Shown: positions 14,281-63,771 of the stretch, in pieces | Numbering within the stretch: the first letter of the stretch is position 1 | Layout: each line of letters starts with the position of its first letter | Source: Acidimicrobiales bacterium | GTDB lineage: Bacteria > Actinomycetota > Acidimicrobiia > Acidimicrobiales > JACDCH01 | NCBI GenBank assembly: GCA_051000215.1 | Contig: JBPCON010000003.1 | Location: 10,321-74,320, forward strand | Direction: 5' to 3' | DNA: 64,000 nucleotides | The notes under the pieces: model-generated | The model's input: the letters and a program-made list of their open reading frames with translations, nothing else | What the model was told of the DNA's origin: nothing | The model's database searches: none | Made by a program: the position numbers and the translations under genes

Positions 14281-14550
14281 ATGCGACCAAAGGTGATCGT
14301 GGCTGTCGCTCGGCACCCCTCGCTGTGGGTGACCGCGGTTGTCCAAGGGTTGCGGCTCGTGCCTCGTCGATGGTGGGCGCGCTCGCCTTTCCTGCCGGTG
14401 CCAGATCGCGCGTATCTGCGCTTCCGCCTCGAGACGCAGTACGGGGGTGCCGGCGAGCTCGGGCCTGACCCGGCCGACGTGATCACGTGGCTGATGTGGT
14501 GCAAGCAGGCCGATGAAACGCGGCGCCCCCGGTTCGGAGCGCGGAAGTAG
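14281..14550 (+). CDS. hypothetical protein (89 aa)
   Basis: ATG ORF with GC-rich third codon positions, immediately upstream of the HNH gene on the same strand. No recognisable motif. Confidence 0.45.
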   Translation: MRPKVIVAVARHPSLWVTAVVQGLRLVPRRWWARSPFLPVPDRAYLRFRLETQYGGAGELGPDPADVITWLMWCKQADETRRPRFGARK

Positions 14551-14563
14551 CCTGCCTCCCACT

Positions 14564-15067
14564 ATGAGCACTCGGGCGCTCGTGCTGAACGCGTCGTACG
14601 AGCCGCTCACCGTTGTGTCCGCCCGACGGGCCGTCGTGCTCGTCATCGGCCAGAAGGCCGAGCTCGTCTCGGGCAGCGGCGTCGTCCTGCACAGCGAGCG
14701 GCTGGCTGTGCAGGTGCCGTCGGTCGTCCGCCTGCGCCAGTTCGTCTCGATCCCGTTCCGGCGCCGGGTCGCGGTCAGCCGCCGAGCGGTCATGGCTCGC
14801 GATTCCCACACCTGCCAGTACTGCGGCGAGCGCGCTGACTCGATCGACCACGTCGTACCCCGCTCGAAGGGCGGTGCGCACAGCTGGGACAACGTGGTGG
14901 CCGCGTGCCGGCCGTGCAACGTGCGCAAGCGAGACAGGCTGTTGCACGAGACTTCGATGCGCCTGCACAACCGACCCCGGGCCCCCCTGGGCGCGTCGTG
15001 GTCCATCCTCGCCACCGGTGTCGTCCCCGACGAGTGGGGCCCGTACCTGCTCGACGCTGCTGTCTGA
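14564..15067 (+). CDS. HNH endonuclease family protein
   Basis: ATG 14564 inside ORF 14513..15067. CQYCG...DHVVPRSKGGAHSWDNVVAACRPCNVRK is an HNH/McrA-type motif. Confidence 0.85.
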   Translation: MSTRALVLNASYEPLTVVSARRAVVLVIGQKAELVSGSGVVLHSERLAVQVPSVVRLRQFVSIPFRRRVAVSRRAVMARDSHTCQYCGERADSIDHVVPRSKGGAHSWDNVVAACRPCNVRKRDRLLHETSMRLHNRPRAPLGASWSILATGVVPDEWGPYLLDAAV

Positions 15068-15071
15068 CCAG

Positions 15072-15719
15072 GTGGCAAGCTGGGCGATCGAGGAGCTCGC
15101 CGGCGCCGCTGGCGAGCTGCACGCGCTCGATGTGGCTCAGCAGATCTCGCGCACGGCGGTGCTGCTGCGCTTCGATCGCCCGTCGATCGTGCTCGGCTCG
15201 ACCCAACCACAGGTGCACGGCTCGGTCCCTGCTGGCGTCGACGTCGTGCGTCGTCGCAGCGGTGGGGGAGCGGTCTGGTTGCCGCTCGGCGGGGCGCTCT
15301 GGGTGGACGTCTTGCTGCCGCGCCATGACCCGTTGTGGACCGACGACATCAGCTCCAGCGGCATCTGGCTCGGCGAAGCCTGGGCGGCGGCGCTCGCCAG
15401 CATCGGCGAGAGCGACGCCACCGTGCATCGCGGCGCGATGGTGCGCCATGAGCTCGCAGCGTCGTTCTGCTTCGCCGGTCTCGCGCCCGGCGAGGTGACG
15501 CGAGGCGTCGAGGGCCCGAAGCTGGTCGGTGTCAGCCAGCGCCGCACCCGCGCCAGCGCGCGCTTCCAGTGCATCGCGTATGCCACCTGGGATGCGGCCT
15601 TGCTGGCGCGTGCCGTCGACGTGGCGCTCGACGCTGTGGCCGGCGTCGGCGCCGGCGTCGGCGACGGGCGGCTCCCCGCGCTCGAGGCAGCGTTCCTCGC
15701 AGCGCTCGGGGCGGTGTGA
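15072..15719 (+). CDS. biotin/lipoate A/B protein ligase family protein (catalytic domain only)
   Basis: GTG 15072, in frame with ORF 14613..15719. VVRRRSGGGAVWLPLGGALWVDVLLP and KLVGVSQRRTR resemble the LplA/LipB catalytic-domain core. Confidence 0.65.
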   Translation: MASWAIEELAGAAGELHALDVAQQISRTAVLLRFDRPSIVLGSTQPQVHGSVPAGVDVVRRRSGGGAVWLPLGGALWVDVLLPRHDPLWTDDISSSGIWLGEAWAAALASIGESDATVHRGAMVRHELAASFCFAGLAPGEVTRGVEGPKLVGVSQRRTRASARFQCIAYATWDAALLARAVDVALDAVAGVGAGVGDGRLPALEAAFLAALGAV

Positions 15720-15774
15720 GTCGAACACGTGTACCCGGAGTGCGTCGTCGCGCCTTGAAAGTTGCTGGAATGCC

Positions 15775-15803
15775 TTGACCGGTGGGTGACAGTGGCTTAC
15801 GGT
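15775..15803 (+). promoter_or_regulatory. candidate dcw/mraZ promoter (-35 TTGACC, 17-bp spacer, -10 TACGGT)
   Basis: TTGACC at 15775-15780 and TACGGT (TANNNT class) at 15798-15803, about 60 bp upstream of the mraZ GTG. No experimental support. Confidence 0.45.
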
Positions 15804-15820
15804 GGAGCGCAGTGGAGAGC
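15781..15820 (+). promoter_or_regulatory. four direct RGTGG repeats with exact 10-bp phasing (candidate MraZ operator)
   Basis: Sequence reads ggtgggtgac agtggcttac ggtggagcgc agtggagagc. The array overlaps the putative spacer and -10. MraZ proteins are known to bind phased G-rich direct repeats at their own promoter. Confidence 0.55.
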
Positions 15821-15861
15821 AGAGGGACGGTCCGTGCACTCCGGGGAAGGACAGTCAGCCC

Positions 15862-16299
15862 GTGTTCACCGGCAAGCACGATCGGTCGCTCGACGACAAG
15901 TGGCGCCTCGTGCTGCCGGCGTCGTTCCGGCGTCCGTTCGAGGACGGTGGTGGCCGGCTGGCCCCGGGCGACCGTTGCCTGGCGCTGTTCACCGAGGACG
16001 AGTTCGCGGGGGTCATGAATCGCATGGTGGAGAAGTCCCGTAGTGACGAGGCCGACGATGCAGTCGTCGATGCTGTGCGCCTGTTCAACGGCCTCACCGT
16101 ACCGGTGCAGCTCGACAGCCAGGGCCGGTTCGTGCTCGGCGAGGAGCACAGGGCGTACGCCGGGCTTGCACGGGACGTGATGGTCGTTGGTCAGAACGAC
16201 CGCATCGAGATCTGGGATGCCGGTGCATACCGCGTGCTCGAGGAGGCGCAGCCGGCGGCCGACGTCTCGGCGACCCTGCGACGCATGAGGGTCTTCTGA
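15862..16299 (+). CDS. mraZ: transcriptional regulator MraZ
   Basis: GTG 15862 inside ORF 15802..16299, with a GGGGAAGGA SD upstream. VFTGKHDRSLDDKWRLVLPASFR and QLDSQGRFVLGEEHRAYAGL are the two MraZ/SpoVT-AbrB repeats. Confidence 0.9.
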   Translation: MFTGKHDRSLDDKWRLVLPASFRRPFEDGGGRLAPGDRCLALFTEDEFAGVMNRMVEKSRSDEADDAVVDAVRLFNGLTVPVQLDSQGRFVLGEEHRAYAGLARDVMVVGQNDRIEIWDAGAYRVLEEAQPAADVSATLRRMRVF

Positions 16300-16384
16300 C
16301 CGCAACGCCCGACGACCACGCCACGAGCACGACACGACGACCACGAAGGAGGACCAGAGCGAAAAACGGACACACGAGAGCGAC

Positions 16385-16511
16385 GGATCGCTGATCCGCA
16401 GCCTCCCGGTGAGCAGATGGAAGGCCCCTACTCCGCCCGCTTCCCATCAGTTCAGTCGGGGAGAAATCCCGGCGAGCGCCCGCCCACCGGGGGGCTGCCG
16501 ATCAGCGATCC
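16385..16511 (+). promoter_or_regulatory. structured mRNA leader between mraZ and rsmH (25-bp long-range helix; possible Rfam mraW motif)
   Basis: 16385-16409 pairs with 16511-16487 at 23/25 Watson-Crick positions plus one G-U. The arms enclose 77 nt with a GGGA-GAAA-UCCC hairpin at 16459-16470. Non-coding by frame inspection. Confidence 0.5.
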
Positions 16512-16579
16512 CCGAGCAAGCACAGCAGCGCGGTCGGCGGCGACGCCGTCGATCCGAGCCGACGATGGAAGGCTCGCCC

Positions 16580-17518
16580 ATGAGCTCTGGCTTCTCCCAC
16601 CGACCGGTGATGCTCGACGAGGTCGTCGAGACGCTGCGGCCGGTGCCCCCGGGTTGGGTGGTTGACGCCACCGTCGGGGGAGGGGGTCATGCCACGGCGA
16701 TCTTGCGCGCGCTTCCGCACCTGTCGCTGCTCGGCTTCGACCGTGATGGCGATGCCCTGGCGGCAGCAGCCGATGCGCTCGAGCCGTTCGCTTCGAGGGT
16801 GCGACTGCACCGGGTCCGTTTCGACGCACTGGAAGACGTGATGGAGGAGTTGCACATGGAGGAGATCAGCGCAGCCGTGTTCGACCTGGGGGTGTCATCC
16901 CCTCAGCTCGACCGCCCCGAGCGCGGGTTCTCCTATCGCAGCGACGCCCCATTGGACATGCGCATGGACCGGCGACAGCAACACAGCGCGGCCGACGTCG
17001 TCAACGACGCCGACGAGGCCGAGCTCCGCCGCATCCTGCGCACCTTCGGCGACGAGCGCCACGCGCACCGCATCGCGCGAGCGATCGTTGCTGCGCGGCC
17101 CGTCACGACGACCGGTCGGCTGGCTGAGATCGTGCGCGGCGCGATACCGGCTGCGGCGCGGCGCCGCGGCGGTCACCCCGCGAAGCGCACCTTCCAGGCC
17201 ATCCGCATCGAGGTGAACGGCGAGCTCGAGGCGCTACCGGCAGCACTGGATGCGGCCATCGATCGGCTCACTCCCGGCGGGCGCTGCGCGGTCCTCAGCT
17301 ACCACTCCGGTGAGGACCGCATCGTCAAGGATCGCTTCCGCAGAGCCGCGACGGGCGGGTGCACCTGCCCACCAGGGATGCCTTGCGCGTGCGGCGCGCT
17401 CCGTGCCGTGCGCGAGTTGCGGCCGTTGAAGAGGCGGCCGTCGGCAGCAGAGATCGCGGCGAACCGGCGTGCAGAGAGCGCAGTGCTGCGCGCGGTCGAG
17501 AAGTTGGCCGTCGGCTGA
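16580..17518 (+). CDS. rsmH: 16S rRNA (cytosine1402-N4)-methyltransferase RsmH (MraW)
   Basis: ATG 16580 (GGAAGG SD 8 nt upstream; alternative ATG 16565) inside ORF 16409..17518. HRPVMLDEV, DATVGGGGH, DLGVSSPQLD and FQAIRIEVN motifs. Confidence 0.93.
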   Translation: MSSGFSHRPVMLDEVVETLRPVPPGWVVDATVGGGGHATAILRALPHLSLLGFDRDGDALAAAADALEPFASRVRLHRVRFDALEDVMEELHMEEISAAVFDLGVSSPQLDRPERGFSYRSDAPLDMRMDRRQQHSAADVVNDADEAELRRILRTFGDERHAHRIARAIVAARPVTTTGRLAEIVRGAIPAAARRRGGHPAKRTFQAIRIEVNGELEALPAALDAAIDRLTPGGRCAVLSYHSGEDRIVKDRFRRAATGGCTCPPGMPCACGALRAVRELRPLKRRPSAAEIAANRRAESAVLRAVEKLAVG

Positions 17519-63728: not shown

Positions 63729-63771
63729 CTCGAGGCAATAGGTGGCGCCACGCGCCACCCATTGCCTCGAG
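63729..63771. terminator. 19-bp interrupted stem-loop between convergent genes (possible bidirectional terminator)
   Basis: ctcgaggcaat-a-ggtggcgc-cac-gcgccacc-c-attgcctcgag. An 11 + 8 bp stem with one A/C mismatch and a 3-nt loop, starting 7 nt after the acyl-CoA dehydrogenase stop. No clear U-tract. Confidence 0.5.

Follow-up and report, generated by a model that had tools for sequence, protein, structure and literature searches.

The window, by which we mean the whole stretch of 64,000 nucleotides of Acidimicrobiales DNA analyzed here, contains a dcw gene cluster that starts with mraZ (15862–16299, plus strand; Pfam MraZ PF02381, E = 3e-21) and rsmH (16580–17518, plus strand; Pfam Methyltransf_5/MraW, E = 7e-103). 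According to the Pfam matches, the order of the encoded proteins is MraZ, RsmH, FtsI, a Mur ligase of the MurE/F type, MraY, MurD, FtsW, MurG and MurC. The start codon of mraZ is presumably the GTG at 15862. For rsmH, a start prediction was run and the ATG at 16580 was preferred, because the resulting N-terminus MSSGFSHRPVM is homologous in close relatives. The best relatives of RsmH were found in metagenome-assembled genomes (MAGs) of Acidimicrobiia with 57–67% identity, and there was no close species-level representative among the matches.

Just upstream of mraZ, four GTGG boxes follow each other at an exact spacing of 10 bp (15782–15815, plus strand). The array is unique in the 64-kb window and was matched in none of 100 shuffles, and 60 of the 200 loci that were fetched show the triple GTGG repeat ahead of mraZ. 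Repeats of such type have been described for B. subtilis as the canonical MraZ-binding repeats (bioRxiv 10.1101/2022.02.09.479790), and the boxes are, as judged from their sequence, the presumptive MraZ-binding repeats of the operon promoter region. Given these repeats upstream of mraZ, an element in the mraZ-rsmH spacer would be transcribed within the mraZ-rsmH-dcw mRNA, between cistrons 1 and 2. Scanning positions 15600–16700 for promoters and terminators yielded none. The spacer further contains an orphan purine block, GAAGGAGGA (16345–16353, plus strand), which is located between the mraZ stop codon and the inverted repeat described below and is not followed by a start codon; GAAAGGAG(N3)CGAGGA-like blocks are present in most of the homologous spacers.

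The sequence-only reading had drawn attention to an inverted repeat in this spacer, and a recount on the sequence agrees with its description. The arm at 16385–16409, GGATCGCTGATCCGCAGCCTCCCGG, is complementary to 16487–16511 at 23 of 25 positions; at the other two, C faces C (16397/16499) and U pairs with G (16404/16492). The arms of 25 nt enclose 77 nt, which include a hairpin at 16459–16470 with the sequence GGGAGAAATCCC, and the distance from the end of the helix to the ATG codons downstream is 54 nt (ATG at 16565) and 69 nt (ATG at 16580). The complementarity runs beyond the 25 nt noted earlier and extends to arms of 30 nt (16385–16414 and 16482–16511) at 90%. We refer to the resulting helix as P1, which consists of 12 + 14 + 2 bp with single mismatches between them and a predicted stability of about −58 kcal/mol for the arms by themselves. 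The P1 repeat ranks at the top of all inverted repeats in the 64-kb window, and the shuffle control for its arm gave no match in any shuffle. An RNA spanning 16375–16521 (147 nt) folds with −84 kcal/mol, compared to −57 ± 3.6 kcal/mol for dinucleotide shuffles (z = −7.4), and none of 200 dinucleotide shuffles folded as well. This confirms that the inverted repeat is real and beyond chance.

A conserved three-stem RNA encoded on the plus strand of the mraZ-rsmH spacer has the 25-bp helix as its closing stem. In the predicted fold, this RNA comprises about 127 nt and forms a three-way junction of the helices P1, P2 and P3, as outlined by folding, covariation and sequence conservation. The 5′ arm of P1 (16385–16414) contains a pyrimidine tract, CCUCCC, at 16402–16407, and is followed by the P2 hairpin (16416–16448), whose arms GAUGG.AAGG and CUUC.CCAUC enclose a loop of 13 nt (16426–16438). 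This loop is C-rich and nearly invariant, reading CCCC(U/A)ACUCCGCCCG followed by CUUCC, with CCCC(U/A)ACUCCGCCC as the 13-nt loop sequence in the homologues, and it overlaps a near-invariant block, ACUCCGCCCGCUUCC, at 16430–16444. The P3 hairpin (16450–16477) carries the apex GGGAGAAAUCCC at 16459–16470, which corresponds to GGGAGA(A/C)AUCCC in the family and is invariant except for the A/C alternation at one position of the loop GAGA(A/C)AU. The 3′ arm of P1 (16482–16511) contains an SD-like run of G residues, GGGGGG, at 16489–16494, followed 6 nt later by an AUC (16501–16503). All these features lie on the plus strand. The same three-way junction was predicted independently in 17 of 17 genome-derived sequences, and the elements of the homologous loci measure about 125–135 nt. 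P1 is near-perfect in every member and 24–29 bp long, since 24–29 of the 29 pairs of the model are formed. The junction strands are poorly conserved across the family alignment. A mutual-information scan for tertiary or pseudoknot pairs gave none beyond the three helices; a candidate loop-loop contact between GGAG in the P3 apex and CUCC in the P2 loop is invariant and can therefore produce no covariation signal.

Homologous elements were found upstream of rsmH in 15 of about 25 genome loci of Acidimicrobiia, always on the rsmH strand. The element-bearing genome records are assigned to Acidimicrobiia, Acidimicrobiales, Ilumatobacteraceae, Ferrithrix or unclassified Actinomycetota MAGs. From a MAFFT alignment of the genome-locus sequences we built a covariance model, which detected exactly one copy per element-bearing locus, and none elsewhere in the 64-kb window, in Firmicutes or in the loci lacking the element. 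For a census of metagenomes, we used a DNA pattern of the two conserved blocks that is blind to gene context and obtained at least 120 matches. Among the 120 matches listed, about 110 are full covariance-model hits with scores of 67–133 bits, and every model-positive locus among them with enough flanking sequence is preceded by mraZ and followed by rsmH and then ftsI; the 10 listed pattern matches without mraZ-rsmH context are not hits of the model. Scanning viral contigs with the core pattern gave no hits. The contigs with matches stem from marine (Tara), lake and soil metagenomes, and the element seems to be widespread in nature.

The sequence-only reading had also considered a MITE-like repeat, which dispersed copies of the arms would have favored. 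The arm sequence has no second copy anywhere in the 64-kb window, and the metagenome copies among the matches listed are all located between mraZ and rsmH. A single copy per locus in the same slot and on the same strand, G-U pairs in the helix and loops as the most conserved parts of the element refute this suggestion.

Covariation was assessed on an unbiased set of genome loci that had been found through RsmH, using a structure-agnostic MAFFT alignment of 14 sequences. For the 47-pair structure, 88% of the cells are paired in this alignment, compared to 35–44% if the partners are slid against each other. Changes on both sides occur at 30 of the 47 pairs, a level reached by none of 500 shuffles, and RNAalifold recorded compensatory changes at 24 of 35 pairs for the same alignment. 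With the 89 distinct sequences among the metagenome matches listed, 91.8% of the cells are paired (about 40% with slid partners) and compensatory changes affect 41 of the 47 pairs, namely 28 of 29 in P1, 6 of 8 in P2 and 7 of 10 in P3. The check on homologous spacers proposed in the sequence-only reading thus revealed strong covariation. In the metagenome set, the search pattern itself accounts for part of the invariance of the loops, whereas the genome loci found through RsmH are free of this bias, and both loop blocks are still nearly invariant in them; the exceptions are single C-to-U changes in loci L017 and L020/L024 and an altered P3 apex in locus L058.

The strand of the RNA follows from the base pairs themselves: P1 contains many U-G pairs that turn into C-A mismatches if the opposite strand is read, which argues for a plus-strand RNA, and the covariance model scores the window with 124.5 bits on the plus strand versus 52.5 bits on the minus strand. 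In relatives with 70–74% identical RsmH proteins, the element is nearly identical and its few differences in P1 are compensated, while the flanking spacer is unalignable. As far as sequence comparison can tell, this pattern shows that the element is under purifying selection. A small ORF within the element was tried as a further candidate and rejected, because among the 89 members from the matches listed 33 lack an in-frame start, the ORF lengths range from 4 to 398 codons across the family, and the distances between the conserved blocks favor none of the three phases (33/29/27). Neither Rfam 15 nor the searchable literature contains the element. It is lineage-specific for Acidimicrobiia and represents a new, well-supported structured RNA family of these bacteria in the mraZ-rsmH spacer.

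The inner part of P1, GCAGCCYCCCGG paired with CCGGGGGGCUGC, differs from the outer part in being conserved in sequence and in remaining strand-asymmetric, with pairs limited to C-G, U-G and U-A; in outer P1, G-C is freely exchanged for C-G. The 3′ hexamer of inner P1 consists of purines only and is SD-like, reading GGGGGG in 49 of the 89 members among the matches listed and otherwise taking forms such as GAGGGG or GGGAGG. An AUG or GUG is present 6 nt past the G-run in 38 of these 89 members. This in-helix codon is the start of rsmH itself in 9–13 members, where it is in frame and marks the onset of homology, which means that rsmH starts inside the 3′ arm of P1 in about 10–15% of the family (9–13 of about 85). 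In about 10 further cases (some 10% of the members), the in-helix codon opens a short uORF whose stop is located at the rsmH start or no more than 20 nt from it, and the uORF-rsmH junctions include ATGA overlaps. Across the family, the rsmH start is located at a median distance of 34 nt beyond P1, and most members have it outside of the helix with its own Shine-Dalgarno (SD) sequence. This also applies to the window, where the in-helix codon is the out-of-frame AUC at 16501–16503, and rsmH has its own SD sequence, GGAAGG (16567–16572, plus strand), in addition to its ATG 69 nt downstream of the helix. Because most rsmH starts lie outside of the helix and have their own SD, the element cannot in general work by masking the ribosome-binding site directly. 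The SD of rsmH in the window is part of a 10-nt copy (16564–16573) of the P2 5′ arm sequence GAUGGAAGGC. This repeat was considered as an anti-SD switch and rejected because it is not conserved in the homologues; it probably reflects just the SD-likeness of GAUGGAAGGC. A TTGACA box found 13–17 nt upstream of P1 in a sub-clade was likewise rejected as a promoter, as no TANNNT −10 box follows.

Inner P1 invites comparison with SD-sequestering operators and uORF-coupled systems, with which it shares a purine tract at ideal distance to an AUG and paired to a pyrimidine tract, as well as uORFs that end at the downstream start, ATGA overlaps included. It differs from them in that only a minority of the members fit this scheme, the window itself having an AUC, and in that the stability of the helix in the Acidimicrobiia RNA by far exceeds that of known switchable operators. 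At about −58 kcal/mol, P1 is not expected to open spontaneously, so the lineages with in-helix starts would need processing or a helper for rsmH translation. Inner P1 could also be conserved not for an SD function but as a tertiary receptor for the loops.

With moderate confidence, we propose that the RNA is a cis-acting leader or processing element that sets the expression of rsmH and the dcw genes relative to mraZ. It would be part of a polycistronic mraZ-rsmH-ftsL-ftsI-mur mRNA originating from an MraZ-controlled promoter, and would act in cis by uncoupling or adjusting rsmH and the downstream division and cell-wall genes with respect to mraZ. In the proposed mechanism, P1 would lock the conserved SD-like purine tract against the pyrimidine tract, and in some lineages also the start codon of rsmH or that of a uORF ending at rsmH. 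Two routes for opening P1 may be envisaged, either processing, most obviously by RNase III, or binding of a factor that recognizes the invariant P2 and P3 loops together with the sequence-conserved inner duplex of P1. A rigid scaffold presenting two invariant loops beside a conserved duplex points to a site recognized by a partner, to a defined processing site, or to both. In the window, the in-helix start would have decayed to AUC and rsmH would be translated from its own SD and ATG, and the role of the element there is most likely in processing, stability or factor binding rather than in direct masking of the ribosome-binding site.

Involvement of RNase III, which the sequence-only reading had already brought up, appears plausible from the duplex geometry. 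Long near-perfect duplexes are the geometry of RNase III substrates, and P1 offers at least two turns of near-continuous double-stranded RNA. RNase III-cleaved stems in intercistronic or leader positions are known from phages lambda and T7 and from E. coli operons. The Acidimicrobiia RNA resembles them in placing a long, almost perfectly paired intramolecular duplex between the cistrons of an operon, with the potential to uncouple mRNA fates or to unmask a ribosome-binding site, and differs from typical ones by its invariant apical loops and its three-way junction, cleavage being putative in the present case. The RNase III site in Corynebacterium reportedly lies in the mraZ coding region, not in the spacer. 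A role in processing and stability alone, in which cleavage of P1 would part mraZ from the rsmH-dcw mRNA and leave stabilizing stems at the new ends, with neither sensing nor a translational function, is possible, though we regard it as rather unlikely. It would fit the 24–29 near-perfect base pairs of P1 in every member, the position of most rsmH starts outside of the helix, and a preprint according to which RNase III acts on and degrades the mraZ mRNA of Corynebacterium glutamicum, with consequences for division (bioRxiv 10.1101/2022.02.09.479790). Such a purely processing function leaves unexplained, however, why the 13-nt P2 loop and the P3 apex are nearly invariant, why inner P1 is conserved in sequence and strand asymmetry, and why an SD plus AUG recurs in the 3′ arm. 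That dcw clusters can carry control at the RNA level is exemplified by UpsM, which is reported to be a structured, RNase-processed RNA on the dcw operon transcript of Rhodobacter sphaeroides, although this alphaproteobacterial RNA is located upstream of mraZ and is unrelated in sequence and structure (PMC5089854).

The closest published counterpart of the element is the mraW motif (RF01746) of Actinomycetales, to which the sequence-only reading had tentatively assigned it. This motif has been described as a single hairpin of three stems with internal loops and a highly conserved CUUCCCC terminal loop, which always precedes mraW, a membrane protein gene, ftsI and mur genes and for which a cis-regulatory role was presumed in 2010 (Weinberg 2010 supplement; PMC2864571); a mechanism published after 2010 was not found in the literature searched. 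The assignment stands as far as a conserved, covarying RNA in the same spacer is concerned, and fails with regard to membership in RF01746. Rfam 15 at the gathering threshold gave no family match for the window, and only chance miRNA-type hits were returned at the gathering threshold and at E ≤ 10 for the window, the isolated element and the 14 homologous loci. RF01746 itself had no hit at E ≤ 10 on a 1001-nt query from the window, on the 141-nt element or on the 14 homologous loci. Comparing the new family with the published mraW seeds by nhmmer in both directions yielded nothing below E = 1, although the mraW profile recovered its own seeds in the control. The two tests by which the sequence-only reading had proposed to judge the mraW idea thus diverged, as the mraW model found nothing but the covariation is overwhelming.

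Both RNAs are located directly upstream of mraW/rsmH, ftsL, ftsI and mur genes in Actinomycetota, and the locus in the window agrees with this gene context, with RsmH, FtsI, Mur ligases, MraY, FtsW and MurG identified by Pfam in order. They also share a long closing helix whose 5′ strand is rich in pyrimidines and whose 3′ strand is rich in G (GGCCUCUGCCCGA and UCGGACAGGGACC in mraW, GCAGCCUCCCGG and CCGGGGGGCUGC in the Acidimicrobiia RNA), a conserved C-rich apex (CUUCCCC compared to ...CCGCCCGCUUCC, which contains CUUCC), and annotated start codons that are sometimes located in or just behind the 3′ strand. In contrast to the single hairpin of mraW, every member of the new family forms a three-way junction with an extra invariant hairpin, GGGAGAnAUCCC, and its own invariant loop, ACUCCGCCCG; of the CUUCCCC terminal loop, only a partial CUUCC is present, which follows the P2 loop and belongs to the stem. 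The element-bearing records are from Acidimicrobiia or unclassified Actinomycetota MAGs, in contrast to the Actinomycetales of the published motif. Therefore, the Acidimicrobiia RNA is probably a positional and functional counterpart of the mraW motif and not a member of it, and possibly a very distant relative. That it is a divergent true homologue which the Rfam model fails to reach would agree with the common slot and phylum and with the shared strand bias, C-rich apex and start codon position, but is unlikely in view of the silent RF01746 and nhmmer searches, the different architecture with the additional P3, and the unlike invariant loops.

The near-invariant P2 loop has a further resemblance to be considered. 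Its sequence ACUCCGCCCG matches, at 9 of 10 positions, what we take to be positions 1396–1405 of 16S rRNA (ACACCGCCCG), a segment which presumably includes C1402, the residue methylated by RsmH; 16S positions 1392–1406 are a universally conserved primer site. The RNA may serve specifically to sense or control the first step of the division operon: its loop would mimic the decoding-centre strand around C1402, so that RsmH or another factor that binds the decoding centre would bind the leader and, together with processing of P1, would set the ratio of MraZ to RsmH, which we consider quite unlikely. If it were true, an rRNA-mimic operator would be the first mechanistic handle on the orphan mraW-type leaders. 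The stricter version, an operator mimicking the substrate to which RsmH binds on its own leader to autoregulate its synthesis, is very unlikely. It would account for the P2 block being the most conserved part of the RNA and for an element that only adjoins rsmH among the matches listed, and other rRNA methyltransferases (ErmC, KsgA) have been reported to be autoregulated. However, RsmH has been reported to work on assembled 30S subunits rather than on naked RNA, the Rfam SSU models have no local hit on the element, an identity of 7 nt in a GC-rich sequence is weak, and the loop of the mraW motif, which holds the analogous position in Actinomycetales, reads CUUCCCC instead.

The exposed C-rich loop also recalls the 6C RNAs of Actinobacteria, which use C-rich loops, and an excised fragment would gain protection from its very stable closing stem. 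It is nevertheless improbable that a stable sRNA is released from the operon transcript to act in trans by this loop in a 6C-like manner, since the element has no hit to the 6C family, a search of the window for targets complementary to the P2 loop gave matches below the chance expectation, and the strict association in cis favors a cis role. A metabolite riboswitch that would control the dcw operon in response to a cell-wall precursor or SAM/SAH is highly improbable. The three-way junction with two possibly kissing hairpins (GGAG/CUCC) resembles a purine-type aptamer, and the strong conservation and fixed gene association would be in line with it; yet the junction strands, which usually form the ligand pocket, are variable, a P1 of about 30 bp and −58 kcal/mol is far too stable for ligand-dependent switching, and neither a terminator nor an obvious alternative pairing is present, leaving the RNA with neither a conserved pocket nor an expression platform. 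Finally, although the DNA does contain an inverted repeat and the ATG at 16417 opens an ORF of 82 codons, a MITE, a chance palindrome or a small protein-coding gene has practically no probability, because the approximately 125 copies from the genome loci and the matches listed all occupy one syntenic slot in one orientation, the helix contains G-U pairs and compensatory changes, and the interior loops are most conserved, while the arms covary and are strand-specific.

The dcw operon is essential and almost universal, and MraZ and RsmH are reportedly an antagonistic pair in E. coli. In a sister class of bacteria, the element adds a second, architecturally different RNA in the slot known from the mraW motif, with more than 100 examples and strong covariation. 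Together with the family as a whole, the rsmH and uORF starts within the helix provide testable hypotheses on translational gating and/or uncoupling by RNase III, and the element constitutes a clean family for experiments and for Rfam.

The mraZ gene (15862-16299, plus strand), which stands at the head of the dcw cluster, is immediately preceded by four GTGG boxes at an exact spacing of 10 bp (GTGGGTGACAGTGGCTTACGGTGGAGCGCAGTGG, 15782-15815), with the hexamer TTGACC in front of them at 15775-15780. This array occurs only once in the window and was absent from all shuffles, and a triple GTGG repeat was found 5' of mraZ in 60 of the 200 fetched loci, Firmicutes among them. The array represents a textbook case of an MraZ operator. 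A reading frame at 14513-15067, which precedes the dcw cluster, encodes an HNH endonuclease domain (Pfam HNH/HNH_5, E about 1e-13).

Between the mraZ stop codon and the long closing stem P1 of the spacer RNA element (arms 16385-16414 and 16482-16511), there is a purine block resembling a Shine-Dalgarno (SD) sequence (GAAGGAGGA, 16345-16353), which is not followed by a start codon. Most homologous spacers carry GAAAGGAG(N3)CGAGGA-like blocks at the matching relative position, and the block of the window could pair with either the pyrimidine strand of P1 or the CUCC in the loop of hairpin P2 (16416-16448). One sub-clade of the RNA family (loci L121, L130, L163, L133, L150, L128, L124, L129, L192 and L182) shows a conserved TTGACA 13-17 nt 5' of P1, and no TANNNT -10 box was found at the right spacing downstream of it in these ten loci. 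The hexamer may belong either to an internal promoter or to the RNA itself.

The 5' arm of P2 further shares an exact 10-nt direct repeat, GATGGAAGGC, with the region spanning the SD sequence of rsmH (16416-16425 and 16564-16573). Since the homologues do not conserve this repeat, it probably represents a coincidence of SD-like sequence. Among the local inverted repeats of the window, a near-perfect hairpin at 63729-63771, with 20-nt arms of 95% complementarity and a 3-nt loop, ranks second for strikingness.

In several homologous loci (L003, L191, L104, L120 and others), short uORFs open at an AUG within the 3' arm of P1 and end either in an ATGA overlap with the rsmH start codon or at most 20 nt away from it. 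This arrangement suggests translational coupling.

The best genome match to the RsmH of the window (65% identity) is encoded at locus L001, on a contig labelled as an uncultured Bifidobacterium MAG, which is likely a mis-binned contig. In Ilumatobacter-type and some other Acidimicrobiia loci (L004, L005, L009, L011 and L015; also L010, L013, L014 and L018), the mraZ stop codon abuts or overlaps the rsmH start, or the spacer is short. The element was not found within the fetched flanks of any of these loci, which implies that in part of the Acidimicrobiia the RNA is dispensable or replaced.
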